Below the pieces are notes generated by a model. The model saw only the letters and a list, made by a program, of their open reading frames with translations, searched no databases and was not told the origin of the DNA. DNA of 63,936 nucleotides, counting the filler, from an uncultured Methanosarcinales archaeon (GTDB taxonomy: Archaea > Nanobdellota > Nanobdellia > Woesearchaeales > CALCXY01), in assembly GCA_964385185.1 (NCBI GenBank). It is 3 parts of 3 records of this genome, joined end to end, with 100 filler letters (N's around TTAATTAATTAA, not from the genome) between each part and the next. Parts side by side here need not be neighbours in the genome. Positions count along the whole stretch, not along the records: positions 23,528 to 46,743 come from CAYLOA010000020.1; 2 more parts are not named here. One strand, given 5' to 3'. Shown here one piece after another: positions 10,739 through 46,843 of the stretch (position 1 is the first letter of the stretch; each line of letters starts with the position of its first letter). Both the position numbers and the translations under genes were made by a program.

Positions 10739-10888
10739 ATGGTTAAGGTTGTTGTGAATAACGGACAGTACAAAATAACGATTCCTAAAGAGATAGCTCT
10801 CGCCAAAGGGTGGAGCAAAAATACTCGAGTTTTAGTTTCTCTGGATGCAGAAGGTCAAGTCGTGTTGAGGGAGCTCTCTAAGAAATGA
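10739..10888 (+). CDS. Small AbrB/MazE/SpoVT-like DNA-binding protein (49 aa)
   Basis: Hand translation MVKVVVNNGQYKITIPKEIALAKGWSKNTRVLVSLDAEGQVVLRELSKK*. Its TGA overlaps the ATG of the giant gene. Paralog of 5368..5505. Confidence 0.85.
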   Translation: MVKVVVNNGQYKITIPKEIALAKGWSKNTRVLVSLDAEGQVVLRELSKK

Positions 10889-16800: not shown

Positions 16801-19800
16801 GAATGTAATGTGTGTGGAAATAATGAGTTAGAAGATGGTGAACAGTGTGATGGTAGTGTCCCAAGTGGAACTACTTGTAATCTTGTTGATCCTGATAATA
16901 CTATAGGAAAGGGAACTTTAAGTTGTAGTTCAAGTTGTACCTTGGATGAGGGTGCCTGTTTACAATGTCAAGATGATCCTGCATGTGGATCTGTTGATGA
17001 TATTGTTTGTGATGGTGGACGAAATTTCCAGACATGTGAGCTTGTTAATGGATGTTTACAATTATCTACTACTTCATCTTGTTCGAATGTAATTGATGGT
17101 GGAGATTCCGAAGTTATTTGTCAGCAAAATGAGTGTAGGGTAGAACCTGATGTTATTATTACCTTAGTGAGTCCTACAGTAAGTGCAGTTCCAAGTGCTG
17201 ATGTGAATTTGGTTGTGAGTACGAACAAAGCTGCAAGTTGTACTATTAATATTGGAAATGGGGGGGTGGGTATGTCCAGTGAAGATCAGATTACTCATAC
17301 GAGAAGTGTTACTTTACCTCAGAATGGAGATAACGACCTCATCTTCACGTGTACTGATGACCTTACTGGAAAAACGGTTCCTATTACAGAAACTATTGCT
17401 CTACGAGTTGAAGAACCTGGGATTGGTGCAATTACATTTTTACCGCAAGGTGCAACTACTGTTCAAAATCTTGTAGAGATAGGTACTGGAAATTTACGAT
17501 TTTCCACAGATGAGCTTAGTACTTGTAGATTTGATTTTGGAGTGAATGACTTTTCAAGAATGCAGGAAACTGTTGGTGATGGAAATGGTCGAAATGTACA
17601 TCAAACTGATGTAGTTATTGATGAACTGCGTACTGACCAGATTTTGTTGTTTGTGGGATGTATCACTGAGGTAGGTGTTGTTGAAACCAAACCTCTTACC
17701 ATTGATGTAACATTGAATGCTGAATTTACAGCAAGTGTGGTAAGTCCTCTTGGAGAGGTTGATTTAGGAAGTGTTATTGTAGAAGTTGAAACCAATAAAA
17801 GAGCATTTTGTAAATTACAGGTGGAGGAGGGATTACAATCAGGATTATTACAATCTAATGATCGACATACTCATTCAAGGGCATTTTTAGATTTGGAAGA
17901 AGGAACGTATGTATTTGAACTTCTTTGTCAGAGTGATGATAATGAATTACTTACACAGAGTATTCCGTTTGAGTTCTTCCCTAATGGAAAACCTCCAAGC
18001 TGTAATGATGGTTCTCAGAATGGTGATGAATCTGATGTTGACTGTGGGGGAAGTTGTGGAGGATGTGGAATATCTATTCAATGTGGTGTGAGTTCTGATT
18101 GTAGTTCCAACTTTTGTTCATCTGGTGTATGTGCAGAGGCTTCTTGTACTGATGAAATACAAAACGGACAAGAGACTGCTGTTGATTGTGGTGGAAGTTG
18201 CATTTGTACAACAGGACAAGCTTGCCAAGATAATAATCAATGTGATAGCAGTTCTTGTACAGCCCAAGGTGTTTGTGGAGCAGCTACTTGTATAGATGGA
18301 ATCAAGAACCAAGATGAATCTAGTGTAGATTGTGGAGGATCATGCAAAGGATGTGGAACTGAGGTGTTCTGTAATATAGATAGTGATTGTAGAGATGGAA
18401 TTTGTGGAAGTATTAATTCACCTAATGATCATTTATGTGCTGCTCCAAGTTGTTTCGATTCTGTACAGAATGGATTAGAGACAGGACTTAACTGTGGTAG
18501 AGATTGTGCTGCTTGTAATGTAGGTAATGGATGTTTACTTAATTCAGATTGTGTTGAAGGTGTTTGTGATTCTGGCTCAGGATTATGTGCAGCTGCTAGT
18601 TGTAATGATAGAGTTCTTAATGGTGGAGAGAGTGGGGTAGACTGCGGCGGAAGTTGTAGTGCTACTTGTGATGTGGGCATAGGTTGTTTTAGTGTTACTG
18701 ATTGTAGTTCAGGAATTTGTTCATCTGGTGTGTGTACGGCGCCTACGTGTGAAGATGGACTGCAAAATCAAGGAGAAAGTGATGTAGACTGTGGTGGAAG
18801 TTGTGGAGTTTGTGGAGCTGGAGATACCTGTACGGAGGGTAGTGATTGTAGTTCTAATAAATGTAAGGGGGGATTTTGTACTATTCCGTCTTGTAGTGAT
18901 TCCGTTCTCAACCAGGATGAAACTGGTATTGATTGTGGAGGAGATGTTTGTGGAACATGTCAGATTGGAGACAGCTGTAGTGTAGGAGATGATTGTTTTA
19001 CTGATATTTGTGTAAGTGAAGTGTGTGTTGCTCAAACTTGTGAAGATGGAATAACTAATCAAGATGAGAATGATGTGGATTGTGGTGGAGTCTGTGGAGC
19101 ATGCTCTGAAGGAAATAGTTGTGATATTAGTTCTGATTGTACAAGCAATGTGTGTAAACCTAATGTGGATGGAGATTTTGTATGTCAAGCTCCTAGTTGT
19201 GATGATACTGTGAAAAATGGCAATGAAGCTGATGTAGATTGTGGTGGAAGTTGTGATGAAGCTTGTGTTGCTGGTAATACTTGTAGTATAATATCTGATT
19301 GTAGTGTAGATACCACTTGTACTAATGGTGTTTGTGTTGCTTGTCGACATGCATGTGATATTGATAGTGAGACAGTGTGTACAGATGACTTTAAACAACA
19401 GATTTGTGATGATGTAGATGGAGATCATTGTAGAGATCCTAGTTTTCCTCTTTCCTGTTCAGCTGGAGAATTTTGTGTGAATGATGGATGTGAATTATTG
19501 CTTGATAATAAGCTGACATTGGTTGAGCCAAGTTTTGGAATTGCCAATACAGGAACATTTAGAGTTGTTGTAGAGACTGATAGAGATGCAACTTGTAGGC
19601 AAAGTACTTCAGATGTTGTGTTTGATCAGATGGGTGCATTTAATGTTAATAATGGTGATAGGCATGTCTTGAATCAGCTTGGATTTATTGGGAATCAGGG
19701 AAGTCTTTTTGTAACTTGTGTTGATGTTGTTACCCAGGAGAGCTTTTCTGCTGAGTATGCACTTTCTGTGGATAAACAGCCACCGAAGATTATTGTGAGT

Positions 19801-22800
19801 GCTAGTCCTAATCCTATTGTAGAATCTCCAGCCTTGAGTCTGATTAGAGTTGAAGGGAGTACTGAGGTTCATTGTAGAATAAGTGGAAGTAGTACGGTCT
19901 TTGATGAGATGGAAGACTTAGGTAAGGGTGAGTTTAGTGATTCTCATACCTATAAAACTCCTCATTTACCTGATGGTGGAAGTACCTTCAATGTCGTGTG
20001 TAGAAATAGAGCTGGAGGCGAAGTTTCAGGGTCTGTAACCTTAGATGTTGATTTAGGAGCTAGCTTTGTTGTTAAAGATCGAACTGATGATTTGTTTGTG
20101 GAAAACTCTGGTGTTTTACGGGTTGGTACCAATAAAGCAGCTAGTTGTAGTGTTGAGCGGCCAAGTGGTACTGTTGTTATGGAACCTGATGCTGGAAATT
20201 TAGTGCATGCTCTTACTTTGGTAGGATTGGTAGATGGACTGCAATCTCAATTAGTTACGTGTGAGTCTTTTGAATCTCAGGATGTGGTGAGTTTGGATAT
20301 TTCCTTTGATGTTGCAATCGGTGGGGTCAAGGAAAGTTGTATAGATGGTATTTTGAATCAAGATGAATCAAGTGTAGATTGTGGTGGTGAAGTATGTGGA
20401 GCTTGTTCAGAAGGAGATCGTTGTAAAGTGGTAAGTGATTGTGATATTGATAGTACTTGTGGTAGCGGGGTGTGTGTTGCTTGTCAACATGAGTGTGTGG
20501 ATACTGGTGTAACTGTATGTAATGGATTAGATATTCAAACCTGTCAAGATGCAGATAAAGATCATTGTAGAGAGCTTAGTGAAGCTGTGAGTTGTGCTGT
20601 TGGGCAAGTGTGTCAAGATGATGTATGTAGTGCGCCTACTGTTTTGAAGGGTAAGATTAGCACTCCGGCCTTTGGAGAGGTTGATAAACATGTCTTTAGA
20701 CTTGAAGTGGAAACGAGTAGGGTAGCTACCTGTGTCTGGGATACTTTTGATAGGTCTTTCGATGATATGAAAGAATTTACTGGAGGAGATGGTAGTTTGC
20801 ATACTGTTGAAGGTGTGAATATTCCTGGTAGGGTTGGAGGGGTGTTCGTACGATGTGTGGATCCTCTTGCTGATGGAGTGAGTCTTCCTCAGGAGATTTC
20901 CTTTAATCAAAAAATAATTGTTGATCCGAATCCTCCTATCATTGAGTTTTCGATTGCAGATCCGAATCCGATTACTGATATTCCTGAAAAAACAAGTTTG
21001 ATTGTACATACTGACAAACCTTCGGTATGTGATTTTGTTGAGGGACAGGTAGGTACTAATGGTTTAGAAGGGGATTTCCCTGGAAAAGAGGATGGAGTCT
21101 TTATTACTGAACATGAAGTTATTTTAGATAAATTTGATCTTAGTCAGAAGGAATATGAGTTCAGAGTTACTTGTGAAAGTAAGGCAGGTGTAAGTGTTGC
21201 TGCTAAAATACCTGTAACACTTGCATCAGATGAATTATTTAAGATAACTGATACAGAATTGGCTCCGATTAGTGATATTGATCAGAATGCCTTAGAGATT
21301 GTCACCAATAAATTGGCAAGCTGTGAGTTAGATTTAGATGGTAGTAAGATTAGGCTTAAACAAGAAGATAGATTACACTATACACACCTGTTTAATGAGT
21401 TAACTGAGAGAGAATATCCTTTTACCGTTACTTGTCTTACTAATAGTTTCCAGGAAGATACTCGAGACTTGACATTTAGGGCGATAGAGGGTGGAGAGAA
21501 TTGTCATGATGGATTCCAGAATCAATTGGGAACTGAATTAGCAGAGACTGATGTTGATTGTGGAGGAGATAATACATGTGATCGATGTGAAGCTGGTAAG
21601 AAATGTGTTATTGGCGTTGACTGTGTGTCTCAGGTTTGTGGTGTAGATGGATTATGCCAAGTAGCTAGTTGTAGTGATGGAGTTCAAAATCAAGATGAAG
21701 AGAAAATTGACTGCGGAGGAGATATTTGTGCACGATGTCCTAATATTCCACCAGTTGTGCTTGGGTTGCATGCGGATAAAGAAGGTGTAGAGATTGGAGA
21801 TAGTGTTAAGTTTATTTGTGAGGCTTCCGATGAAGAGTCAAGCAACAATAAACTCATTGGAGAATTTTATTTGCGACAAACTGAGAGTCCAAATTGGAAT
21901 TTAAAAGAAAAAGAAAAGATGTTTTACTCAGATGAAGATGATAACTTTGTATTCAATTATCAAGTAGATGATTTACCTATTGGTCAAGAATTTGTAGGCC
22001 ACTGTGTTATTAGTGATGATGAAGATAGTCAAGGTTTAACGAATGCAGACTTAGGTGTTACTGTAATAAATAGCTTACCTGTTGTGAATCTTCTAACCTT
22101 TGAACCTTTAGATTTAATTCAGAAAAAAGTACGGTTTATTTGCAGAAGTAGTGATAAAAATGAAGATGAATCTAGTCTTGACGTTCGGATGACTGTTAGT
22201 AAAGATGGGAGAGAACTCTTTAGAGGGGCAGCTGCCGTTGATACTCTTAGTGGAGGTCACTTTGTTGATCTGAGTGGGGTGGAAGAAGGTGTTCATGATA
22301 TTACTTGTGAAGTGTTTGATCAAGGAAATGATGTTATTGTTTTACAAGAGAGTAGTGTAGCAGGTGGAATAAGAAAAGTGAATGTTGATTATAATGCCTT
22401 TAAAGACGATATTGATCCTGTATTTGGAGAGATTAGGATTGTTCCTTTCAAAGATAGAACAACTGTCTTCTGGGCTGCAAATGAGCTCGTCAATGGAACT
22501 TTGTTAGTTAAGAAATTAAAAGATGGTAGCCAGGTGGGAATACCAGAAACAACCTTTAAGATAACTCATGAAACGTTAGCTACTGGTTTGGAACCGTCTA
22601 CTGATTATTCGGTTGCTATTATTGCTAGTGATCCTTCAGGAAATATTGCACCTTCCAAAACACTGAGCTTTACCACCACAGGAGCATCCAGTTGTAATGT
22701 TGATACTGATTGTGATCTTACTCAGATGTGTATTGCAAATAGCTGTAGAAAGATTCCTGTTTGTGGAGATAATGTCGCAGACTTTGAAAGTTTCTATGCT

Positions 22801-23403
22801 GGAAGGTCTGATAGAGAAGTTTGTGATTTAGGTGATGCTGCTAATTTAACCTGTACAAATTATCCTGGAGCTGCTGCTGCAGGATTTACAGGAGGAGCAT
22901 TATCATGTGTAACTTCAGTTCCAACCTGTGGATTTGGAGATATTAATACCAGTCAATGCTTTACTTGTGGAGACGGTACACATACTCCTGAGAAGGGTGA
23001 AGTGTGTGAAGTAAATATGAAGACTACCTGTGGTGCTTTAGGTATTGGTGTTGGCGAGGCTACTTGCAGCAATAGTTGTGAGTGGGATGTCAGCGAATGT
23101 AGTTTCTGTGGAAATAATGTGTGTGAAGCTGCTGAAGGTGAGAATGCTGCTAGTTGTGGTGTAGATTGTAAAGGGGAGGGAGCATCATGTAACTTAGATG
23201 AACAGTGTGAGACTGGCTATGAATGTACTCCTGGAAAACTGTGTACAATTACTTCCAAAATTGAATGTAGGACTAACAGTACTTGTTCAAGTGGAGAGTT
23301 TTGTAACGATGCTCTACGATGTGCAGATATTATAGAGTGTACTAGAAATAGTGACTGTGATGATGGATATAGATGTAGCAATGATAATAAGTGTAGCACC
23401 TGA
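10885..23403 (+). CDS. Giant (4172 aa) secreted Cys-rich surface protein with DUF4215/Myxococcus-type Cys repeats, Ig-like and FN3-like domains
   Basis: Sec-type signal peptide. Dozens of CGDG...E-x-CDDGN...DGCS..C repeats and CxDGxxNxxExDVDCGGxC repeats, interspersed beta-sandwich domains, and an FN3-like H...TGLEPSTDYSV segment. No C-terminal TM. Confidence 0.9.
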   Translation: MKYRNMIVVLAILLVLSFGVYGISLPSTPDCFTDNDCSVFNKGGVDCRGGDCVCTSNSCVKSVCQNNVKEGLEDCDDGNSNNDDACSSTCTLTFCGDGDTQQPNGNDLSEQCDDGVGNSNSCVPGRDGECTVCTDQCLSQTFIGSFCGDSQVDSAFGETCDDGNTVNDDGCTNGCLLPACGDGIQQNGEACDDGNSVNTDSCTNACTLAVCGDSFTQTGEECDDGNDNNNDGCTNSCTVLSCGDGFIQGSEQCDDGVNNADSCVASRDGSCDVCTTACVEKTVVGSSCGDGNVDSHFEQCDDGNTNSNDGCSSTCRDESCGDGIQQSNEACDLGSNNANTGTCTDACSLATCGDGFTQSGETCDDGNSDEDDGCSSSCQIEFCGDEIRQANEACDAGPNGNLLCTSSCTLTFCGDGVTQIENGEEVDEACDDGNSVESDGCNNICQLTICGDDIVQQPNGNLLAEVCDDGTDNANNCVATRDGTCSFCDVNTCQPADVTGAFCGDGNFDIGDEQCSDSNAAGFCVEDCNQNIKPEITFISPSAGDNMPLGQEIEVEVRVVDRDVKAANTLQRIDFTVKLGNSVVSEERITSIGENQFFTHTFTPVETGSYSIQVKAIDSDVTVGSIGAVTEVDATIQLKTVKELGIGDNDIATYTLNDESIQITDPPEKPSLTSRFVLWLRGLVGFAVRTSVIADADQSKVVNNGADFKAFLSYTIVNSASQAVKRVGPTEIEVGRVEKLDVLFDDLAGQDGSNLFGWDPFDRDISVQSVEDIFGLYQLKVHLEDSDGVVIRNTDGRSLAVVSDFRIAELCGDGRATGDEVCDESEFAGKVCSDFLNSGGKPFTGGSLTCSDSCDLSTTVACVTEPGCENGLRDSDISLQETDVDCGGPIVNGCSRCAITQACGVDTDCGSGLICQTNVCVKDPVCGDSVLDEGEACDDGNTVNNDVCSSTCTNTFCSDSVQQSPNGAGQFESCDDGNVANNDGCNSVCQNEQCGDGVQQNGESCDDGNTNNGDGCSASCNVEVCGDGVVQTPNAAGFTELCDDGVSGSDTCNSQCTFTFCGDGVRQSGEACDDGNGNNNDGCSATCSEERCGDGIVQTIEGCDLGLGNSNTGSCTLSCSLAECGDGFRQVGEACDDGDANSNTGSCTLSCNVAGCGDGFLQSGEACDDGNNLNTDSCTNACVAAVCGDSFVQSGEECDFGVSNSNTGICTTSCLLPTCGDGFRQASEQCDEGEQNSNTGSCTLTCRTDLCGDGFVQSGEFCDDGNTNSGDGCSNSCLLEVCGDGIVQTPNRDGQNEACDDGNTVDTDSCTNACEASFCGDGTQQSGEACDDGNEINNDGCSDLCVVEFCGDGIQQASEACDDGNLVNNDACSSSCEIEVCGDQIIQTGEQCDDGNFLENDACTNSCRVTTCGDGRVQVPNGEGVSESCDDGNSVNNDECSNSCRVTFCGDGIIQSGGNGLGVDEGCDDGADNANSCVATRDGTCSFCDVNTCQPADVTGAFCGDGNFDIGDEQCSDSNAAGFCLADCDQNILPDISILEPENGDIIPLGKTVNIIATVTDQDINPERDLEDVEIIVELRGREITKTKSNSVGSVSSFSFPFLPEQTGDYVIKVIATDSVDTEKSIVVRSEIDASIQMKTLKDINLPPGEIATYTLLDKSVQLTDPPDPEPLVKRVVGWLRGLVGFAVRASVVAEEDQSKIVNRGAPFEAFIRYQIIQNSLAIKTIGPVPLAVDSLVKLDITFDELSGQSNVFGWIPTDRVDTNVVTEDLFGSYQFRAQLLDSSGTVLHNKDENSLTVLSPFVIAPTCGDTIRTGDEVCDTTDFGSVQCSDFLNTAGNAFTGGSLSCGNSCEAIDKSQCVTAAACENGLLDAGNPLFETDTDCGGPVANGCSRCAITDSCLVNSDCGTGLLCESNVCVKEAVCGDGVLDEGEVCDGSSSGAQPLCTDHAFGSGTFDSGVVGCAADCGSYILTECNVCGNNELEDGEQCDGSVPSGTTCNLVDPDNTIGKGTLSCSSSCTLDEGACLQCQDDPACGSVDDIVCDGGRNFQTCELVNGCLQLSTTSSCSNVIDGGDSEVICQQNECRVEPDVIITLVSPTVSAVPSADVNLVVSTNKAASCTINIGNGGVGMSSEDQITHTRSVTLPQNGDNDLIFTCTDDLTGKTVPITETIALRVEEPGIGAITFLPQGATTVQNLVEIGTGNLRFSTDELSTCRFDFGVNDFSRMQETVGDGNGRNVHQTDVVIDELRTDQILLFVGCITEVGVVETKPLTIDVTLNAEFTASVVSPLGEVDLGSVIVEVETNKRAFCKLQVEEGLQSGLLQSNDRHTHSRAFLDLEEGTYVFELLCQSDDNELLTQSIPFEFFPNGKPPSCNDGSQNGDESDVDCGGSCGGCGISIQCGVSSDCSSNFCSSGVCAEASCTDEIQNGQETAVDCGGSCICTTGQACQDNNQCDSSSCTAQGVCGAATCIDGIKNQDESSVDCGGSCKGCGTEVFCNIDSDCRDGICGSINSPNDHLCAAPSCFDSVQNGLETGLNCGRDCAACNVGNGCLLNSDCVEGVCDSGSGLCAAASCNDRVLNGGESGVDCGGSCSATCDVGIGCFSVTDCSSGICSSGVCTAPTCEDGLQNQGESDVDCGGSCGVCGAGDTCTEGSDCSSNKCKGGFCTIPSCSDSVLNQDETGIDCGGDVCGTCQIGDSCSVGDDCFTDICVSEVCVAQTCEDGITNQDENDVDCGGVCGACSEGNSCDISSDCTSNVCKPNVDGDFVCQAPSCDDTVKNGNEADVDCGGSCDEACVAGNTCSIISDCSVDTTCTNGVCVACRHACDIDSETVCTDDFKQQICDDVDGDHCRDPSFPLSCSAGEFCVNDGCELLLDNKLTLVEPSFGIANTGTFRVVVETDRDATCRQSTSDVVFDQMGAFNVNNGDRHVLNQLGFIGNQGSLFVTCVDVVTQESFSAEYALSVDKQPPKIIVSASPNPIVESPALSLIRVEGSTEVHCRISGSSTVFDEMEDLGKGEFSDSHTYKTPHLPDGGSTFNVVCRNRAGGEVSGSVTLDVDLGASFVVKDRTDDLFVENSGVLRVGTNKAASCSVERPSGTVVMEPDAGNLVHALTLVGLVDGLQSQLVTCESFESQDVVSLDISFDVAIGGVKESCIDGILNQDESSVDCGGEVCGACSEGDRCKVVSDCDIDSTCGSGVCVACQHECVDTGVTVCNGLDIQTCQDADKDHCRELSEAVSCAVGQVCQDDVCSAPTVLKGKISTPAFGEVDKHVFRLEVETSRVATCVWDTFDRSFDDMKEFTGGDGSLHTVEGVNIPGRVGGVFVRCVDPLADGVSLPQEISFNQKIIVDPNPPIIEFSIADPNPITDIPEKTSLIVHTDKPSVCDFVEGQVGTNGLEGDFPGKEDGVFITEHEVILDKFDLSQKEYEFRVTCESKAGVSVAAKIPVTLASDELFKITDTELAPISDIDQNALEIVTNKLASCELDLDGSKIRLKQEDRLHYTHLFNELTEREYPFTVTCLTNSFQEDTRDLTFRAIEGGENCHDGFQNQLGTELAETDVDCGGDNTCDRCEAGKKCVIGVDCVSQVCGVDGLCQVASCSDGVQNQDEEKIDCGGDICARCPNIPPVVLGLHADKEGVEIGDSVKFICEASDEESSNNKLIGEFYLRQTESPNWNLKEKEKMFYSDEDDNFVFNYQVDDLPIGQEFVGHCVISDDEDSQGLTNADLGVTVINSLPVVNLLTFEPLDLIQKKVRFICRSSDKNEDESSLDVRMTVSKDGRELFRGAAAVDTLSGGHFVDLSGVEEGVHDITCEVFDQGNDVIVLQESSVAGGIRKVNVDYNAFKDDIDPVFGEIRIVPFKDRTTVFWAANELVNGTLLVKKLKDGSQVGIPETTFKITHETLATGLEPSTDYSVAIIASDPSGNIAPSKTLSFTTTGASSCNVDTDCDLTQMCIANSCRKIPVCGDNVADFESFYAGRSDREVCDLGDAANLTCTNYPGAAAAGFTGGALSCVTSVPTCGFGDINTSQCFTCGDGTHTPEKGEVCEVNMKTTCGALGIGVGEATCSNSCEWDVSECSFCGNNVCEAAEGENAASCGVDCKGEGASCNLDEQCETGYECTPGKLCTITSKIECRTNSTCSSGEFCNDALRCADIIECTRNSDCDDGYRCSNDNKCST
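12312..12455 (+). repeat. 144-bp exact direct repeat, copy A
   Basis: Identical to 15312-15455. Confidence 0.9.
15312..15455 (+). repeat. 144-bp exact direct repeat, copy B
   Basis: Identical to 12312-12455, offset exactly 3000 nt. Confidence 0.9.
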
Positions 23404-23427
23404 GGCTTTTAAAATTTTTAATGGTGT

Positions 23428-23527
23428 NNNNNNNNNNNNNNNNNNNNNNNNNNNNNNNNNNNNNNNNNNNNTTAATTAATTAANNNNNNNNNNNNNNNNN
23501 NNNNNNNNNNNNNNNNNNNNNNNNNNN
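23428..23527. other. Artificial contig spacer
   Basis: N-run + TTAATTAATTAA (stops in all six frames) + N-run, 100 nt. The same layout occurs at 46744. Confidence 0.95.
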
Positions 23528-24534
<1,007 letters not shown>

Positions 24535-24705
24535 TTATCACGTTCCTAAAACTTAAAAAAATTTACATTTATTGTCGGAAAAACAATTGTACTTCATACA
24601 TGAATGTAATTCAAGTATACATGATTAGCCTTTCACCGACGGTGCTAACATAGTATAGCACCTTAGAAAGTGGTGGCGATAAGAATTAACAGAGGAGCCA
24701 AGTTC

Positions 24706-24727
24706 TTTATAAAGGTTTTGGTTTTTC
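24706..24727 (-). promoter_or_regulatory. Probable rRNA promoter (BRE + TATA)
   Basis: Minus strand GAAAAACCAAAACCTTTATAAAG about 170 nt upstream of the 16S 5' end. Leader contains the hairpin GGTGCTA...TAGCACC. Confidence 0.6.
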
Positions 24728-24738
24728 AGTAAGAATCT

Positions 24739-25461
24739 CTATATATCTTGCACAAATAGTGCGGCCTCCAAGTAATCCTTCCAGGCCAGGATTTCCTTAT
24801 TTATAATATCCCTTAACATTGACACGATCTGCACACCTTCAGGGAAGTTTTTTTTGCATCTTTTTAAGATTGATTTCTGATGAATTGTAGTTAACTGTTC
24901 CTCCAAATGATCAATAGGTTTCTGATAATTTCCTGCTAATTGTACTTCTTGAAAAATAGTATCAATGTCAAAATATAATTTTTTTGCATTGTCTTCTGCT
25001 TCAATTATTTTCTGAACTTCATTACCATATAATCTTTTAGCACCAGCATCAGCTGCTAACGTTTCTAATCGAATACCTTCTGCCAACAATGTTCTTCTTT
25101 GCTCTCTTAAAAATTTACATTTTACATAATCTTTATGGGACACATCCAAACTGGATTTTAATGAATGTAGATCTTCCATTACTTGAGCCTCCATTGATTG
25201 TAGACAAAGATCGTACTCTAAAACTGAAGACTCCAAACTTTGAGCTTTCGAGGAATACCATTTATGGGAAAAGTTATTTTGTTGATAACTTGTGACGGCT
25301 AATCTGATCCGGCCAATGTTCTGAGATGATTCTTCCAATTGATCAACTGAGTCCCATCCTGATTCTAATGTTGAATTCTCAATATGTGTAAGGTGACTTT
25401 GTAGTTTATCATCAGGTACATGTATTGAGGGACAAGGAAAGTTGACATAGTAGTCATCCAT
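24739..25461 (-). CDS. Hypothetical alpha-helical/coiled-coil protein, last gene of AAA-vWA operon
   Basis: 240 aa; start overlaps the vWA gene stop. Confidence 0.7.
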   Translation of the reverse strand: MDDYYVNFPCPSIHVPDDKLQSHLTHIENSTLESGWDSVDQLEESSQNIGRIRLAVTSYQQNNFSHKWYSSKAQSLESSVLEYDLCLQSMEAQVMEDLHSLKSSLDVSHKDYVKCKFLREQRRTLLAEGIRLETLAADAGAKRLYGNEVQKIIEAEDNAKKLYFDIDTIFQEVQLAGNYQKPIDHLEEQLTTIHQKSILKRCKKNFPEGVQIVSMLRDIINKEILAWKDYLEAALFVQDI

Positions 25462-26920
25462 AGATATCCCTCATTTTTCCTGTAACTAAATTTGGCAAGT
25501 CGTCAAAAGTTTGCATGGGGACAACGTTGTATCCCATATTCTCAAATGTTTCTCCAGCATCACTATTCAAATATACACAATTGCCTCCTGCACTCCTAGA
25601 TATTTTTTCCAAGTTAGCCTGTTGGTCAGTCACATTAGCAATATAGGCATCAGTAATTACCAATACATATGTGCCCCAGGAATTTCCATTAAGAAGATCA
25701 TGAATTTCAGAACCAGGAATTTCAGTTCCACCTTTTTGATAGAGTGTTAAAATAGTATCTATAGCTGTATTGTTCCTGGTAAATTCTACTGAATAATTTG
25801 CACTAGAAAAGTTCATTACAGCAACTTTCTGTCCGGCAGATAGTGCACTCTGCTTGGCAATAAAACTAGACAGAACGGGAATTGAGATATCTTCATTTCC
25901 GTCTGGCATACTCGCACTACTATCTAACACGATTAACAAATCTTTTTTCTCCTGGCTTTCTGTGGGGCCATGTGCTTCTCCAAATTTCCATTTAGAAAGA
26001 GCATTTGGATTCAAAACTCCAAATCTTGAAAGACTATACTCAAAATCTGCATCCAAAGCTTTTTCAGGTTCACAATGTATGGGGGATTCAAGAACAACAT
26101 TTCCGCTCCACCCTACGTTTTCAGGGATGAATATTTGATATCTTTTTGCAAGCATATTATAATAATCTGCAGAAACATTACTTTCAGTTCCAATTCCAAT
26201 CCCCCCCAATAATCCTCTGTATTCTCCAAACCTTAATTGTTTTCGAACTTTGTTTAATTCACTCTCACTCACCGGACCAAACTGATCGATGTCCATAGAG
26301 TCAATCAATCCGTCCTGCTCTTCATGTATGTTATGACCCGACATTGTACCAGACATTAACTTTGCAAACTCAACGATTTTATCTGGCCATTGTTTAGACC
26401 GATGCACACAATTTCGTAAGGTATTTGCCATACCTGTCACTTCTTTTGTTTTCTGTAAGCTTCCATAACCGTGAGAGATCATTTCCCCCCACACGGACAT
26501 ATACATGTTCCACCATGACTCTCCACTGTTTGGAATTCTTTCATACACAGTGCGAATTCCAGGATCTCCATTTACAAATAGATGATAATTAACCAAAAGA
26601 TCTGAAAATAAATTTTGTATCAACTTTGCATGTTGCATATTTCCCACCACGCCGTTAGCCTTGCCGATTAAAACCAGGAATGCACTCATGGAAAATGGAC
26701 AGAGCATATAATGGCCAATTTCATGATTGTGAATTGTACTCAGTAGATCTCCCCCTACCTTTTCCTCCAAATTTTTTCCATTAACACAGATTTGTTTACT
26801 TTGCATATTCATGGCGGCAATGCCATCCATGGAATTATAAATAGGATCAGGCAATTTAGGATAATGCCAAAACGCTCGAGCATCATCCCATGCTGTTTTT
26901 TTATCTTGATCTGTTAACAT
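25454..26920 (-). CDS. vWA-domain protein with N-terminal HExxH metallopeptidase-like domain
   Basis: HNHEIGH...NLFSDLLVN in the N-terminus. MIDAS elements LDSSASM, GGTEI and VITDA. ATG start MLTDQ at 26920 preferred. Confidence 0.85.
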   Translation of the reverse strand: MLTDQDKKTAWDDARAFWHYPKLPDPIYNSMDGIAAMNMQSKQICVNGKNLEEKVGGDLLSTIHNHEIGHYMLCPFSMSAFLVLIGKANGVVGNMQHAKLIQNLFSDLLVNYHLFVNGDPGIRTVYERIPNSGESWWNMYMSVWGEMISHGYGSLQKTKEVTGMANTLRNCVHRSKQWPDKIVEFAKLMSGTMSGHNIHEEQDGLIDSMDIDQFGPVSESELNKVRKQLRFGEYRGLLGGIGIGTESNVSADYYNMLAKRYQIFIPENVGWSGNVVLESPIHCEPEKALDADFEYSLSRFGVLNPNALSKWKFGEAHGPTESQEKKDLLIVLDSSASMPDGNEDISIPVLSSFIAKQSALSAGQKVAVMNFSSANYSVEFTRNNTAIDTILTLYQKGGTEIPGSEIHDLLNGNSWGTYVLVITDAYIANVTDQQANLEKISRSAGGNCVYLNSDAGETFENMGYNVVPMQTFDDLPNLVTGKMRDIYG

Positions 26921-28352
26921 AGTGTTTCTGTCGCAACGCACTTATGAGGGGATATTTGGCCAAGGAATCAATTTGTTTTATCACATTGATACATTCATCA
27001 TAATGTTCCGCCTGCCATTCTGATCCCATGTTGGCAGATATGTCCCGATACATAGGAAATAAATGAGAAGTTTCTTCAAATGAATGCAATGAAGTTTTCA
27101 AAAGACTTTTTACCCACTCTTGTCTATCATTAGACCAAACAGGATCTCTAAATGCATCCTTTGTAGGTCTTAATTTGAACCAGGTAGTATAGGTTATGGC
27201 ATGAGTTAAATCTCCCATATCTGCTTCTGAATGATTTCTCCAAGCTGCTAAACCTTTAGTAACTTGGATGATTGAATTGATCGCTCTCGTTGACAAACCA
27301 TTTTCGGTGGAGGAGCAAATATTTCCCTCTGCAGCAAAATGTTCGCAGGTATCACAGGGGGGTGCATTATACAGTGCATTTGATTTTAATTTTGTATCGG
27401 GAGTGGATCCTGCCATATCACATCCCATTAGTTCCCCCGAAAAGTGAGCAAGTTTTGATACTAAGTTTGAATCTATTGTAACATTTTGAATTTGCCTTGC
27501 AACTTCTCCCCTATCTTCTGCATACATTGCAAATGGGGTTTCTTTTTTCCCACCTAAAAAATCTTCATAGTGATAGGGATTGAGATGTTGGACGGTGACT
27601 CCAAGTGGAAATCTATCTAAAAATGGCTCAGGTAAATCAAAATTTCCTGAGTCTGCAGGATTAGCTGTAGCAAAGAGGGGTCCTGGTTTGGCAAATATAG
27701 TTTCATTTTGATAGGTCGTCCAACCCCTATCTACTAACTGATACAATATAGAAAGTGTGGCGGGAGGGATCCTATTTATTTCATCAATAATCTTAACTGC
27801 ACATGTGGTAAAATCTCTCTGGATTAACTCCCGTTCCCCCTGTAACAATTTTACAACATCATACATAGCCACCATTTTTTCCTCGGTAAGTTGCGGATGT
27901 CCATAAATTGTAGCTTGCTGGATATCTTTCATAGGAATATCAAACATCATACTCGAAACGTATTCTGGAAGTGTTGTCTTTCCTAATCCTGGTTTTCCAA
28001 AATAGATCATCGCAGAATCTGGCAACACACAGTTGAGGATGGTAAATGTTAATGGTGCATTATACATCTCTTCGCTGATCACCATTTCTTGGTTGCCTGC
28101 TTCATCTATGGGTACTCTCTGATTTTCTCCATAATGAAGGTCTAACGAGGAGGTGAGAAATTTTCCATCCTGTTGAATGATGTCATACAATTGTTTGCAT
28201 TTTTCCATTCCTGATAGTGTATCATCATGAGGCTTACTCTCAGTGGGAATTTCTTCTATGACTGAATCTAATATTTTAGGGGGAGTAGGACGAACAAAAC
28301 ATGGACGTCTTTTCTTCTCGGACAGATATCTTGATTGGAGTCTAGGATTCAT
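26901..28352 (-). CDS. MoxR-family AAA+ ATPase with Cys-cluster insert
   Basis: Walker A GKPGLGKT, Walker B IIDEINR, FATANP and LPEPFLDRF. GCD...CDTC...IC cluster in the lid region. ATG at 28352 preceded by GAGGTG. Confidence 0.9.
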   Translation of the reverse strand: MNPRLQSRYLSEKKRRPCFVRPTPPKILDSVIEEIPTESKPHDDTLSGMEKCKQLYDIIQQDGKFLTSSLDLHYGENQRVPIDEAGNQEMVISEEMYNAPLTFTILNCVLPDSAMIYFGKPGLGKTTLPEYVSSMMFDIPMKDIQQATIYGHPQLTEEKMVAMYDVVKLLQGERELIQRDFTTCAVKIIDEINRIPPATLSILYQLVDRGWTTYQNETIFAKPGPLFATANPADSGNFDLPEPFLDRFPLGVTVQHLNPYHYEDFLGGKKETPFAMYAEDRGEVARQIQNVTIDSNLVSKLAHFSGELMGCDMAGSTPDTKLKSNALYNAPPCDTCEHFAAEGNICSSTENGLSTRAINSIIQVTKGLAAWRNHSEADMGDLTHAITYTTWFKLRPTKDAFRDPVWSNDRQEWVKSLLKTSLHSFEETSHLFPMYRDISANMGSEWQAEHYDECINVIKQIDSLAKYPLISALRQKHYVNRSR

Positions 28353-29862
28353 GAGTGTGAAATGCACCTCGTGTCTGTAGTTCTTCTCTGTCCTTTCTTC
28401 CGTATTGCTCGATTGTTTTTATAAGAGTCCCTTCAGTAATACAAGGACTAAAATTATTTATCAACTTTTGAGTGTCTTGAATATGATTGCTAGAATAAAG
28501 AGCATGCCACTGATCTGAACTCCATAAGGTTGCCTGTTCTCTTGCTTGTTTAGTCACATCTCTCAATTGTCTCCCCGTAAGCTGATATTCTTGCGCAAGT
28601 GTTCCAAGTGTTCCAAATTCTTGGATATCATGCTTGCTTCCGAGTCCTTCAAGATGTAGTTTGAGAACCTCTCCCCTTTCTTCGGCTGTCTCTGGTCCTG
28701 GACAATATATTCTCTCCAATCTTGCATTCTTTAATGCTCTATCAACTTTCTCAGGATCATTTGCAGTTGCCACCAGAATATAATTCCCCTTATTTTCATA
28801 ATCTCCATCAAGAAATCTCATGAACTCCCCTAACTTCATACGTTGATAGTGAGGGGCTTGTTCATTTCGAGAAGCAAAAACCGTATCAATCTCATCCACA
28901 AAAATAAAATGAGCTTGATCTCCCTGCGTAATTTCTTGCAATTGCGACTGCAACATCTGCACACCCCCTTCTTGATAAGAACTGAACATGTTGAACTTCA
29001 TTACTGAGAATTTTTTGTTGTAGGTAGAGGCCAGAGATTCACCAAGTGACATAGCATATTTGGCACTTAGTGTTTTCCCTGAGCCAGTATCCCCCAATAG
29101 GAGAAATCCTTGTTGATAACCTAGGGAGTTGCCCCTTTGTAATGGATGTGATTGTGACTTAGGATCATACAGTAATAAGTTGCGAACACCTCTTTCAAGT
29201 TTTGAAATCGCTTCTCCATTTCCTATAATCTCAGATCGATTGATATCTGTAGAATGTATCCGTTGTGCAGGAACATTTGCAGGTGTTGATATGGTACTTG
29301 ATTTTTCTCTAAAGGAAATGATTCTATCTGAATGTGAGATTGATAAATCGGCCACTATAGGATTGTATTTTTTTTGAAGAATTTGACTAGTATATCCACA
29401 CAACTGCTCAAAAAATCGAGGTGTTTTTAGAGGGAGAGCACTTCCCGGCTCATGCAGAAATGAAAAATATTCCCTGAGCAAAATATCTAATACAGCTGTA
29501 TCGGTTCTATTAAACGGAATATTGTCAAATGACCTAGTATCCTTAGTTCTCGTTTTGATAGAATCTCCTGCAAATAGTATATTGCCCCCTATATTACCTC
29601 CAATAAGGTGCAGAGCTTCTGCTTCTCTCTTTTTATCCAAACGTCCATGCTGTTGAAGTGAATCTGTACTTGCCAAAAAATAGCTACAAAAATCTACAGC
29701 ACTTTTTATGCTAGAGTCCACATCTCTTTTTGGAAATACTTCTTGGAGGGCAGACTGCTCGGTTCGAAGGAGATGTTCAAACTCAGACTTGGAATATGAT
29801 TCCATCTGTCGTACCAATACAGTATCAAGTGTGACCTTCATTTTATTGATTGGTATAATCAT
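28342..29862 (-). CDS. Classic-clade AAA+ ATPase (Cdc48/FtsH/Vps4-like single module) with novel N-terminal domain
   Basis: GFLLLGDTGSGKT, IFVDEIDTVF, VATANDPEKVDRAL...RLE and LTGRQL motifs. Confidence 0.85.
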   Translation of the reverse strand: MIIPINKMKVTLDTVLVRQMESYSKSEFEHLLRTEQSALQEVFPKRDVDSSIKSAVDFCSYFLASTDSLQQHGRLDKKREAEALHLIGGNIGGNILFAGDSIKTRTKDTRSFDNIPFNRTDTAVLDILLREYFSFLHEPGSALPLKTPRFFEQLCGYTSQILQKKYNPIVADLSISHSDRIISFREKSSTISTPANVPAQRIHSTDINRSEIIGNGEAISKLERGVRNLLLYDPKSQSHPLQRGNSLGYQQGFLLLGDTGSGKTLSAKYAMSLGESLASTYNKKFSVMKFNMFSSYQEGGVQMLQSQLQEITQGDQAHFIFVDEIDTVFASRNEQAPHYQRMKLGEFMRFLDGDYENKGNYILVATANDPEKVDRALKNARLERIYCPGPETAEERGEVLKLHLEGLGSKHDIQEFGTLGTLAQEYQLTGRQLRDVTKQAREQATLWSSDQWHALYSSNHIQDTQKLINNFSPCITEGTLIKTIEQYGRKDREELQTRGAFHTHES

Positions 29863-30949
29863 TTACCAATGATTTCACAATTTGATCATTCTCAGCCATG
29901 AGTTTGTTATTTTTCTGCTGGACATCATTTTGATAGGTCTTGGGATCATGCTCCCTGTTTGCATTTCGTAGTGCAAACACATTTCTATCCAAATCTTGAA
30001 CACTACCTTGGTGAAAAATGCCGATAGCCTCTTTTGACGCTTTGTCCAACTGCATAAGTTCTCCAATTTCTTGCTGAAAGGTGGAGAGAGACCTACCGCC
30101 TTTGTATCGATTAATATAAAATTCAATAACGGTCAGGTCTCCCTTGAGGTTGGTATGAAATTCTTCTGCTTCCATCAAATTAAGTTCTACTGCATCATGA
30201 ATATATTCTATTTTTCCTTTGATAGAATCATTGCGAACAAGCTCTAGTCCTAGCTTTTTCTTTTTCCTCTGAAAGTCTACAATACTTTTCCTCAGTTGTA
30301 TTGTTTCTTGTTGATAGTACTGCAATAAATCGTCAGATTCTTCATCTTCGGGATTTTGTTGTAGTTTTGAATTGTAATCTCCTACTTTCACCTCATGTTC
30401 TGCTTTCATCCTTTCAGCTTGTCTGACATCACGATCGCACTGTTGAATCATGTACGAAATTCCAGTGCACGTTTTAGCATAATGATCCAATTGTGCACCT
30501 AATCCTTTTTTGCTCACAAGTGCTTGAGGGTCATCATCAAATCGATTGTGAAGATCTTCCCTCAACTCACCAATATATTGTAACAGTGATGTTTCATGAT
30601 TTTGTAATCTTTCCTGATATTTTTTTACCTCTAGTTTATAGAGATCTATCCCCCAGCCAAGTAGTTTATCATACAGAAATTTTTTAGTGCCATTAATCTC
30701 TTTAAACGCTTGAGCAACTTCACGATCTATGGATACTTTTTTATCTTCAAAATCTTTATTTTGAACTACTCTTCGGACATCATTATCTTGTTCTTGAAGT
30801 TCTTTAGTGCTGTAAGCAATCTTTTCTAATTCATCTTCCAGCTTAGCTTTTCTAAAAGCTTCAATATCCACACTTTCTTCTTCGGTAGATGGTTGTATGT
30901 CTTTCCTAAAATCATCTTCTGGCATGGCCATAGTTGCTATATCGTTCAT
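29843..30949 (-). CDS. Long coiled-coil protein
   Basis: 368 aa, E/K/Q/L-rich heptad-like pattern, SD GAGGTGA upstream. Confidence 0.75.
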   Translation of the reverse strand: MNDIATMAMPEDDFRKDIQPSTEEESVDIEAFRKAKLEDELEKIAYSTKELQEQDNDVRRVVQNKDFEDKKVSIDREVAQAFKEINGTKKFLYDKLLGWGIDLYKLEVKKYQERLQNHETSLLQYIGELREDLHNRFDDDPQALVSKKGLGAQLDHYAKTCTGISYMIQQCDRDVRQAERMKAEHEVKVGDYNSKLQQNPEDEESDDLLQYYQQETIQLRKSIVDFQRKKKKLGLELVRNDSIKGKIEYIHDAVELNLMEAEEFHTNLKGDLTVIEFYINRYKGGRSLSTFQQEIGELMQLDKASKEAIGIFHQGSVQDLDRNVFALRNANREHDPKTYQNDVQQKNNKLMAENDQIVKSLVNDYTNQ

Positions 30950-30953
30950 AAGA

Positions 30954-31328
30954 TCACCTCAGATTCTCCTCTAAATTTTGCAAACTATTTTTCATAGTTT
31001 GATACGCTTGAATAGTTTTGAGAACATCTTGTAGATTTGGAGAGGATGTATTCGTAGGGGTTGATTGTGGTTTTGTTTGACCAGTTAATGCTTGTAGTCC
31101 TTTGAATTGATGATCAGCATCACCAAGATAGATTTCATTTTGTTGTTGAACCAAAGGATATGATTTTTCAAGTTGATTGGAGTTGAGAAATACAGATTCA
31201 TCTTTTCTGATGATGGTATAGTCTCTATCTTTTGCTGCCTGATAACCGAGGTAACTTCCCGAAATAAAAGATCCAGTTATACTACCCATTAGCATTCCAA
31301 TTCCAATTGTTTTTGATATAATTCCCAT
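30954..31328 (-). CDS. Small N-terminally membrane-anchored protein, first gene of AAA-vWA operon
   Basis: Gly-rich hydrophobic N-terminus (IGIGMLMGSITGSFISGSYLG), 124 aa. Confidence 0.7.
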   Translation of the reverse strand: MGIISKTIGIGMLMGSITGSFISGSYLGYQAAKDRDYTIIRKDESVFLNSNQLEKSYPLVQQQNEIYLGDADHQFKGLQALTGQTKPQSTPTNTSSPNLQDVLKTIQAYQTMKNSLQNLEENLR

Positions 31329-31341
31329 TGTTTCCCCATAG

Positions 31342-31447
31342 CTCCCGCTAATTTGAATTATAATTTGAAAACTGTAGAACCACCAGTCCCCTAGAGGACG
31401 GTGATGCTACAGTGTGTTGAGCCACTAGCCCAACGGTTGCGGGTTCT
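31342..31447 (-). ncRNA. Putative structured 5' leader / cis-regulatory RNA
   Basis: On the minus strand an outer CCCGC/GCGGG pairing encloses the GTTGGGC/GCTCAAC hairpin and a long ACTGTAG...CTACAGT hairpin. GC-rich against AT-rich flanks. Confidence 0.35.
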
Positions 31448-31680
31448 AATATTATATTACATTTACAGGTTAATAACTCCTTCTCAAAAAAATTGTAAAA
31501 TTATTTGGAGGATTTGGAGACTTTTAGGTAGTCAAGATGAAAAAATCTGAAATGAGTCTCTTATAGAGTGATTATTTCGGACTTCCCGGAATAGGACAAA
31601 TTTGTCGTCTTAATTTGTGAATATCATGTATCTACTCAACACCATATATAATTATAAAGAATTATGGCTCAAATGTAAGC

Positions 31681-46743: not shown

Positions 46744-46843
46744 NNNNNNNNNNNNNNNNNNNNNNNNNNNNNNNNNNNNNNNNNNNNTTAATTAATTAAN
46801 NNNNNNNNNNNNNNNNNNNNNNNNNNNNNNNNNNNNNNNNNNN
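46744..46843. other. Artificial contig spacer
   Basis: N-run + TTAATTAATTAA + N-run. Confidence 0.95.

Follow-up and report, generated by a model that had tools for sequence, protein, structure and literature searches.

A conserved archaeal operon that joins a MoxR ATPase and an HExxH-vWA protein to a second AAA+ ATPase and helical partners

Pairs of a MoxR-class ATPase and a protein with a von Willebrand factor A (vWA) domain are among the least understood systems of the AAA+ superfamily (ATPases associated with various cellular activities). The cited papers are represented here and below by excerpts, according to which such pairs are typically dedicated chaperones (PMC9976466, PMC13036017, PMC3893208). 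Group 2.2 jumbo phages encode a MoxR ATPase together with a metallopeptidase-vWA protein, for which chaperone action coupled to proteolytic processing was proposed, and the same excerpts describe a MoxR-vWA pair in an archaeal virus (Iyer et al. 2021, PMC7824862); for the pairs of jumbo phages and of the Acidianus two-tailed virus, help with virion or tail assembly has been proposed or reported. The MoxR-vWA 'ternary' conflict systems of multicellular bacteria include an FtsH-type with an added classical AAA+ ATPase, and this type is described as functioning in the form of a large multimeric complex (Kaur et al. 2020, PMC7159879). The minigluzincin Wss1 works with Cdc48 (PMC4559962). We here describe a six-gene operon, g1 to g6, at positions 24739-31328 of an archaeal stretch of DNA of 63,936 nucleotides, filler included (assembly GCA_964385185.1; the whole stretch is hereafter the window). 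It encodes a MoxR ATPase and an HExxH-vWA protein, a second AAA+ ATPase of the classic clade, and helical partners. No description of this archaeal family was found in the literature, and the member tables of PMC7159879 and PMC7824862 may list it.

The six genes form a real, conserved and overlapping operon of an archaeon related to Woesearchaeota-type metagenome-assembled genomes (MAGs) of the DPANN archaea, and the closest relatives of g5 bear Woesearchaeota names. The open reading frame (ORF) call on the window gave six tightly packed, co-oriented ORFs on the minus strand, in exact agreement with the coordinates in an earlier note on this DNA (Table 1). That note had also placed the genes either overlapping or 4 nt apart; indeed, 4 nt separate g1 from g2, and the remaining junctions overlap by 20 (g2/g3), 26 (g3/g4), 41 (g4/g5) and 8 nt (g5/g6). 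As for the start of g5, an identical public protein begins 7 residues later. Since all six genes have relatives and the gene order recurs, the set is not a product of chance. The earlier note had further named a membrane anchor, a coiled coil, a classic-clade AAA+, a MoxR AAA+ and an HExxH-vWA protein among the products; these names hold on the evidence given below, except that the anchor stands only in part.

Table 1. Features of the operon and its surroundings, in window positions
Feature	Position	Strand	Description
g1	30954-31328	-	124 aa ORF
g2	29843-30949	-	368 aa ORF
g3	28342-29862	-	506 aa ORF
g4	26901-28367	-	488 aa ORF, GTG start
g5	25454-26941	-	495 aa ORF, GTG start
g6	24739-25461	-	240 aa ORF
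Upstream intergenic region, common to the divergent corrinoid adenosyltransferase gene	31329-31680	.	A/T-rich TATA-like stretch
4172-aa ORF, cysteine-repeat-rich	10885-23403	+	DUF4215 in 9 stretches; weak Big_7 and Y_Y_Y matches; N-terminal hydrophobic segment

The adaptor g5 is composed of an N-terminal HExxH zinc-peptidase-like domain (HEIGH, residues 73-77), a helical middle part and a C-terminal vWA domain with a complete metal ion-dependent adhesion site (MIDAS). Among 76 family members, H73 is kept in 76, E74 in 73 and H77 in 74, and the MIDAS residues D340, S342, S344, T406 and D431, which follow the pattern DxSxS...T...D, are each present in all 76; the Pfam model VWA_2 scored 25.4 bits (E 2.4e-5), just below its cut-off of 27. 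In profile comparison, the N-terminal domain matched the minigluzincin selecase MJ1213 (E 1.2e-3), over a strand and the HExxH helix, with a weaker match to projannalysin (0.03) over a strand and helix. The selecase alignment is suggestive of a zincin-type peptidase, for which the invariant N110 and D114 are candidates for the third zinc ligand. Because the HExxH motif is conserved together with its catalytic glutamate, hydrolysis rather than mere metal delivery is suggested.

Two other identities of g5 were tried and rejected. A language-model lead pointed to DUF2201_N (26% of one cluster, score 0.90), but PF13203 gave no match at E<=1 with seven family members (six relatives and g5), and missed the HExxH-vWA gene in 5/5 genomes searched, although in one of these it picked out a true DUF2201_N gene distinct from it. 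When the g5 family was aligned with DUF2201 by hhalign, the vWA part aligned (probability 85%) and the N-terminal parts did not, and only 2/7 Asgard DUF2201_N proteins bear HExxH. The likeness to proteins with DUF2201_N and DUF2201 is thus one of an analogous domain order, a putative metallopeptidase with a vWA-like domain, and of an alignable vWA part. Kinship to the window's own SprT-like protein was rejected as well, as hhalign found nothing.

The gene upstream of g5 encodes a MoxR-class ATPase, g4. Both AAA_5 (39.6 bits, cut-off 22) and AAA_3 (32.5 bits, cut-off 27) of Pfam matched it above their cut-offs, and its family profile, when compared with the PDB, matched MoxR 2r44 best (9e-16), followed by midasin (9e-14) and ChlI (1e-11). 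The residues G124/G127/G129/K130/T131, D195/E196, N236 and R252, which represent Walker A, Walker B, sensor-1 (N236) and the arginine finger (R252), are kept in 54-60 of 60 relatives; the core motifs, the closest structures and the adjoining vWA gene all place g4 in the MoxR class. Past the ATPase core, four cysteines (C316, C338, C341 and C351, at about 27315-27422 of the window, minus strand) are invariant in 60/60 MoxR relatives, from DPANN to Asgard archaea, which suggests that a zinc or iron-sulfur site may be inserted there. To our knowledge, a four-cysteine site of this type is not present in characterised MoxR proteins. A weak likeness of g4 to the chelatase ATPases BchD/ChlI was also seen. 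Neither this four-cysteine ATPase nor the N-terminal domain of g5 has a family model of its own in Pfam or NCBIfam.

We then investigated the distribution of this pair. In the scan with g5, which took a single genome from each species, 105 relatives were obtained, and 80 loci were retained. At the 65 genome loci with room for it, the MoxR gene lies directly upstream of the g5 homologue on the same strand in 53 cases and elsewhere in the locus in 10, and it was not seen in 2. The conserved core is the MoxR and HExxH-vWA pair alone, and this pair is old and widespread in Archaea. Within the Asgard phylum, 142 of 301 sampled genomes matched the Loki homologue at E<=1e-15, mostly in a single copy, and the true share may be higher, depending on the completeness of the MAGs. 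Loci L008-L080 (for example, L058:8175-11638) carry the pair with a MoxR of ~575 aa and an HExxH-vWA protein of ~572 aa. The Lokiarchaeial pair (575 and 572 aa) has a stable neighbourhood, with genes for GatC, a HAD hydrolase, a radical-SAM enzyme, PadR and a peroxiredoxin, and Thor- and Baldr-type loci carry SMC or GltD-like genes nearby. In the DPANN phylum to which the genome of L004 belongs, 33/400 sampled genomes matched at E<=1e-10, with a full-length single match in 11/400 and a match in two adjacent pieces in 5 more.

Two variants of the pair were observed in the course of these searches. A gene of 160-185 aa that resembles Mrr_cat, with a restriction-endonuclease fold, stands beside the pair at L002, L003, L004, L006, L084, L166, L167 and L170. 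In DPANN archaea this Mrr-like gene accompanies both the extended and the simple two-gene form; the simple arrangement of Mrr-like gene, MoxR and adaptor was seen at L167 and L170, and at L166 the Mrr-like gene is nearby. In a soil-type metagenome variant, a conserved gene of ~242 aa is placed between MoxR and the adaptor on many contigs (L094, L097, L099-L101, L105, L106, L109, L115, L128, L150 and L151), and several of these loci then carry genes of 454, 135 and 307 aa. We considered g6 as a counterpart of the ~242-aa gene and rejected this, as there is no similarity between them.

The second ATPase of the operon, g3, belongs to the classic clade. It matched the AAA family of Pfam (PF00004) at 56.9 bits (cut-off 21.2; 4e-15) and has one AAA module, at about residues 250-500, behind a private helical N-terminal domain of about residues 1-185; VAT, Cdc48, Afg2 and Vps4 were its sequence matches among PDB chains, and its Walker A, Walker B and sensor-1 show no variation across 10/10 sequences. 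The AlphaFold2 (AF2) model of g3 (predicted local distance difference test, pLDDT, 77) was closest by VIA-align to ATAD1 (Z 21.1; root-mean-square deviation 3.0 over 263 aligned residues), Vps4 (20.8), Rix7 (20.8) and FtsH (20.0), and Foldseek matched p97 N-D1 at 1e-12; the structural matches cover residues ~190-498 only. The N-terminal domain, of ~185 residues, is predicted to hold six helices and a beta hairpin, with no beta-alpha-beta core, and a word-indexed search with it returned only the identical protein. AAA+ ATPases of the classic clade carry a second region of homology with conserved arginine fingers. The arginines that g3 itself has in the expected stretch are found in DRALKNARLERI, and several family members have none there (alignment A3). 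An identification of g3 as Vps4/CdvC was rejected, since NF041006 scored 40.9 bits against a cut-off of 650 and the predicted N-terminal domain is built of six helices and a hairpin; Vps4 has an N-terminal MIT domain of three helices. Neither a MIT nor a Cdc48-N domain was recognised in g3, with no fold search aimed at the N-terminal domain by itself.

A g3-type AAA+ accompanies the pair at only 7 of the 80 loci (L001-L007). Metagenome and phylum searches added L085 and L162, together with near-identical copies of the window (L081 and L082), of L007 (L084) and of L005 (L161). The order coiled coil, AAA, MoxR, HExxH-vWA is thus found at nine other loci (L001-L007, L085 and L162), all of which carry relatives of g3, and the lack of conserved synteny that would have refuted the earlier note is not borne out. 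The full-type order begins with an Mrr-like gene (4/7) and a g1-like gene (3/7), continues with a helical protein of 380-465 aa, the AAA+, MoxR and HExxH-vWA, and ends with downstream genes, which are a P-loop nucleoside triphosphatase (NTPase; 6/7), a longer protein (7/7) and a TrmB regulator (7/7 genome loci); the full form has three NTPases. In Pfam searches, Transglut_core was present in 2/5 of the longer downstream proteins scanned, and Mrr_cat was matched in L003. The helical proteins of L001 and L005 were tied to those of the other loci only through a joint alignment, as BLAST did not connect them.

In a tree of 143 HExxH-vWA proteins, the ten full-type loci and L083 formed one clade of 11, so that the extension of the pair seems to have arisen once. 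Support was 0.936 for a core of 10 leaves, 0.998 for the window with L083 and L002, and 0.168 for the node that adds L162. The genomes of L002 and L007 (2/7 genome loci) are flagged unpublished. Both are included in alignments A1-A4 and A6 and among the leaves of the tree, and publication of anything from them needs the permission of the depositors. The MAGs of L001, L003 and L005, all with the full operon, are titled 'uncultured Methanosarcinales archaeon', and these titles look like mislabels; at least the genomes of L003 (only ~0.9 Mb) and L005 were drawn in the same phylum sample as the Woesearchaeota MAG of L004.

The remaining products, g1, g2 and g6, match no Pfam family. g1 has a glycine-rich, moderately hydrophobic N-terminal segment, a conserved motif in its middle (Y..I.R ... 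SY.L ... GD..H..K..AL) and a C-terminal coiled-coil-like helix, and homologues stand in the same position at L003, L004 and L006 (BLAST 3e-12 to 5e-16; alignment A7). Its N-terminal segment is a probable membrane anchor or signal.

The AF2 model of g2 is all-helical, with a long hairpin (helices 150-198 and 203-281, pLDDT >90; mean 65) behind an acidic, disordered N-terminal tail, which agrees with the coiled coil of the earlier note. The family of g2 is rare and is named by no library: a profile search of a collection 1.84 billion strong gave 83 representatives at E<=1e-3, 56 of them at <=1e-10, and the best match of g2 was that at L002 (E 1e-25). None of the 83 representatives carries TelA or any other specific Pfam family, and TelA (PF05816), which language-model features had suggested (0.91), was rejected after it matched neither g2 nor six relatives nor the 83 representatives. 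Foldseek returned nothing for g2 at E<=1e-3. Within their first 25 residues, 14/54 proteins of the g2 family (P0010-P0064) carry an acidic-aromatic-acidic tag, such as MGEFD, MSDFD or MDDFD, as compared with 0-6 in other 25-residue segments; over 1000 shuffles, the mean was 3.3 and the highest count 11. This tag may be recognised by the MIDAS site or by the N-terminal domain of an AAA+.

For g6, a homologue, likewise of 240 aa, follows the g5 homologue directly at L083, which is the nearest relative (28% identity, E 3e-30), and a 61%-identical protein of 240 aa is also known, giving two relatives in total. g6 weakly matches the helical middle of the longer downstream family of the relatives, and may thus be a short form, in the same position, of their longer helical or transglutaminase-like protein.

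Based on these observations, we favour, with a probability of about 0.45, the reading that the operon encodes an ATP-gated complex for proteolysis and remodelling that acts on its own helical partners, which are probably tethered to the membrane. In DPANN archaea it would serve as an accessory module for stress or conflict rather than in a core housekeeping function. g1 would hold assemblies of g2 at the membrane, and the MIDAS of g5 would capture an acidic client peptide, with the acidic-aromatic N-terminal tails of g2-family proteins as the best candidates. The MoxR ring of g4 would remodel g5 or the client, and in this way position or unmask the peptidase, and g3 would unfold, extract or disassemble the helical scaffold, or feed it to the peptidase, a step modelled on Cdc48 with Wss1 or, within one chain, on FtsH. 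In this way, limited proteolysis and remodelling, gated by ATP, would take place at the membrane. The Transglut_core, Mrr-like and TrmB genes that accompany the pair in the relatives suggest an effector or regulated system, and a conflict or stress module is favoured by the patchiness in DPANN archaea together with the nuclease and protease accessory genes.

Several results weigh against this reading. The peptidase assignment of g5 consists of the motif and one weak profile match, and the best 19-residue Kyte-Doolittle mean of g1 is 1.24, under the usual 1.6, so that of the membrane anchor claimed earlier the N-terminal hydrophobic segment is there, but only of moderate strength. g2 of the window has, at residues 11-17, only a loose form of the tag, EDDF. 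Because the classic arginine fingers are not kept across its family, g3 may not work as a standard hexamer. A tblastn search of the window revealed no remnants of the P-loop, transglutaminase, TrmB or Mrr genes of the relatives, so that arguments from these accessory genes are only indirect for the window copy. PADLOC gave only generic AAA similarity (TRIP13, 2.5e-8 to g3; DolB and IetA weakly), and nothing specific for the accessory genes of the relatives. No relative was found among 2.9 million viral contigs with the g3 or g5 profile, nor was there a tblastn match of g5 in 50,697 phage records. On the contig of a near-identical strain (L082), the operon stands directly upstream of the 16S-23S rRNA genes. 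Finally, the Asgard pair, mostly single-copy among stable, housekeeping-looking neighbours, fits a chaperone better than a conflict system and argues against a purely defensive origin.

Among the alternatives, we regard as somewhat unlikely a dedicated system against viruses or mobile elements, in which the MoxR-vWA pair is the sensor or switch and the metallopeptidase the effector, to which the relatives add a transglutaminase-like protease and an Mrr-like nuclease, and in which the second AAA+ and the helical proteins make up a large complex on demand. This logic is analogous to that of the ternary MoxR-vWA systems, including those with an added classical AAA+, as excerpted from PMC7159879, and the patchy occurrence in DPANN archaea, the variable accessory genes with nuclease and protease folds, the constant TrmB regulator and the three NTPases of the full form are all in line with it. 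However, the window copy has neither the nuclease nor the transglutaminase gene, its neighbourhood contains no defence-island or mobile genes and is adjoined by an rRNA operon, Asgard genomes keep the core pair stably and mostly in a single copy, and the similarity detected by PADLOC is generic.

The locus also lacks what defines the FtsH-type ternary system. The two share a MoxR-vWA pair, an extra classical-clade AAA+ and private alpha-helical proteins. In contrast, according to the excerpts of PMC7159879, the third component of the FtsH-type has two FtsH-type AAA domains, the first inactive, whereas g3 has one AAA module; its MoxR often has a GxxxTAKS P-loop, whereas that of g4 is GKPGLGKT; its vWA is divergent and may lose aspartates, whereas the MIDAS of g5 is intact; its partners, the ubiquitin-like (Ubl) tri-ligase, JAB and caspase, were not detected with Pfam in the window or at the nine related loci; and its hosts are multicellular bacteria, not DPANN archaea. 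We therefore rejected the operon as an FtsH-type system.

A housekeeping role in chaperoning or maturation appears rather unlikely for the six-gene operon. Under this explanation, the pair would serve one specific cellular complex by metal insertion or remodelling, in the manner of NorQ-NorD, CbbQ-CbbO and RavA-ViaA; the HExxH would be a metal-binding or processing site, and the extra DPANN genes would be lineage-specific clients or helpers. RavA-ViaA, NorQ-NorD, CbbQ-CbbO and CoxD-CoxE likewise have a MoxR-class ATPase adjoining a MIDAS-bearing vWA adaptor, and we know of no HExxH domain in these adaptors. The typical function of MoxR-vWA pairs as described in the excerpts cited at the outset, the invariant four-cysteine cluster of g4 and its weak likeness to BchD/ChlI support this explanation, and the Asgard stability, with the pair beside GatC, HAD hydrolase, radical-SAM, peroxiredoxin or SMC genes, and the position next to an rRNA operon favour it. 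On the other hand, the dedicated pairs each have a known client enzyme nearby, none is evident at the operon, and no lineage shows a candidate client regularly beside the pair; in DPANN archaea the pair occurs only sparsely; and the catalytic glutamate of the HExxH motif is kept in 73/76. The DPANN additions, namely a second unfoldase-type AAA+, a transglutaminase-like protein and a nuclease, are atypical of maturation factors, and operons of the dedicated chaperone pairs have no second AAA+ and no coiled-coil partners.

A bolder form of the favoured reading, in which the pair of four-cysteine MoxR and HExxH-vWA would be an ancient archaeal module, mostly single-copy in about half of the Asgard genomes sampled, that came in one DPANN lineage to control a machine of up to three NTPases tethered to the membrane, seems quite improbable to us. 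A Vps4/Msp1-like unfoldase and an ESCRT-III-like hairpin would then serve membrane repair or remodelling, or abortive infection, under proteolytic control, and the partners would be recruited by short acidic-aromatic N-terminal tags read by the MIDAS.

Very unlikely, in our view, is an ESCRT-III/Vps4-like or PspA-like membrane unit, with a g2 polymer attached via g1, recycled by g3 and regulated by the MoxR and peptidase-vWA pair. The AAA core of g3 is indeed nearest to ATAD1/Msp1 and Vps4, the g2 hairpin aligned by VIA-align to the cores of Snf7, CHMP4B and Shrub (Z 10.4-10.8), and g1 has its N-terminal hydrophobic segment and C-terminal coil. The g2 scores are, however, level with those of SMC arms and designed hairpins and under the Z of ~13 that VIA-align treats as generic for long helices, and neither g2 nor six relatives matched Snf7 or PspA of Pfam at E<=5. 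For g3, Rix7, NVL, FtsH and p97 came within 1 Z unit of Vps4, the CdvC score was far under its cut-off, and the N-terminal domain is unlike the three-helix MIT. More generally, the operon resembles Cdc48/p97 with Wss1/SprT-type proteins, and Vps4 with ESCRT-III, in that a classic AAA+ is encoded with a zincin-like module and a helical-hairpin protein, but homology is limited to the AAA core and the HExxH motif, and the ESCRT-III likeness of g2 is at the level of a generic hairpin. The antiviral or envelope-remodelling role of the earlier note is not supported as written.

A remnant of a virus or provirus assembly module is hardly credible: the pair architecture recurs in jumbo phages of group 2.2, and an archaeal virus has a MoxR-vWA pair (excerpts of PMC7824862), and language-model look-alikes of the N-terminal part of g5 are mostly viral clusters (0.92 and 0.89, as leads only), but the viral and phage searches were empty, capsid, terminase and integrase genes are missing from the neighbourhood, and inheritance looks vertical in the Asgard and DPANN clades.

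In comparison with the jumbo-phage pair as excerpted from PMC7824862, the operon has the same architecture, in which MoxR adjoins a vWA protein with a metallopeptidase domain at its N-terminus, and the same proposed logic of a chaperone linked to proteolytic processing. It differs in being cellular, archaeal and seemingly vertical, in having no g5 sequence relative in the phage and viral collections, and in its second classic AAA+, its helical partners and its four-cysteine MoxR. No named system matches the set, as the earlier note had held: besides PADLOC, Pfam names none, and NCBIfam gave only generic AAA matches, far under their cut-offs. The combination does have precedents in the jumbo-phage pair and in the bacterial MoxR-vWA systems with a classical AAA+ (excerpts of PMC7824862 and PMC7159879).

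The locus defines a conserved archaeal branch of MoxR-vWA systems, in which an apparently active zinc peptidase, judged from its conserved motif, is fused to the adaptor and the ATPase carries four cysteines. That the peptidase-vWA and MoxR pair is so common in Asgard archaea, without a family name, is most likely to surprise specialists; the g2 family, the N-terminal domains of g5 and g3, g1 and g6 are unnamed as well. In the DPANN form, a second unfoldase-type motor and private helical partners join the pair, and this gives a compact candidate set of motor, adaptor, protease and substrate with which to study the cooperation of two unlike AAA+ rings and a MIDAS adaptor. If a role in conflict or membrane repair is true, the operon adds to a very sparse catalogue in DPANN archaea, which live on other cells; if a chaperone role is true, the Asgard pair implies a conserved client not yet known. 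If the membrane-tethered machine is true, it would represent a new archaeal class for conflict or membrane repair and would bear on the origin of AAA+/MIDAS machines such as midasin.

As for the surroundings of the operon, its promoter is likely to lie in the upstream intergenic region (Table 1), since the TATA-like stretch is placed ~20-35 nt ahead of the g1 start. Among the neighbouring genes in the window are those for aIF5A, an M50 peptidase, a SpoU methylase and UPF0182, which mark the host as an archaeon, and mobile-element, defence-island, capsid, terminase and integrase genes were not found in the neighbourhood by Pfam. The 1.3-kb gene-free stretch beyond g6 (23404-24738) corresponds to the 5' portion of an archaeal gene for 16S rRNA, with a match at 23722-24531 on the minus strand to model positions 4-828 of 1478, and the gene breaks off at two 44-base runs of N (23428-23471 and 23484-23527). 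On L082, g6 is followed by a complete 16S gene and the start of the 23S gene, and the continuation past the N runs has no match to the window. The stop of the 16S gene at the N runs and the mismatch of the L082 continuation suggest a join or masking of the window within the rRNA operon, so that the giant gene beyond this point may be no true neighbour. A second pair of N runs, 12 bases apart (46744-46787 and 46800-46843), follows the same pattern as that at 23428-23527. The giant gene itself, a cysteine-repeat-rich ORF (Table 1), probably encodes a surface protein of a kind common in DPANN archaea.

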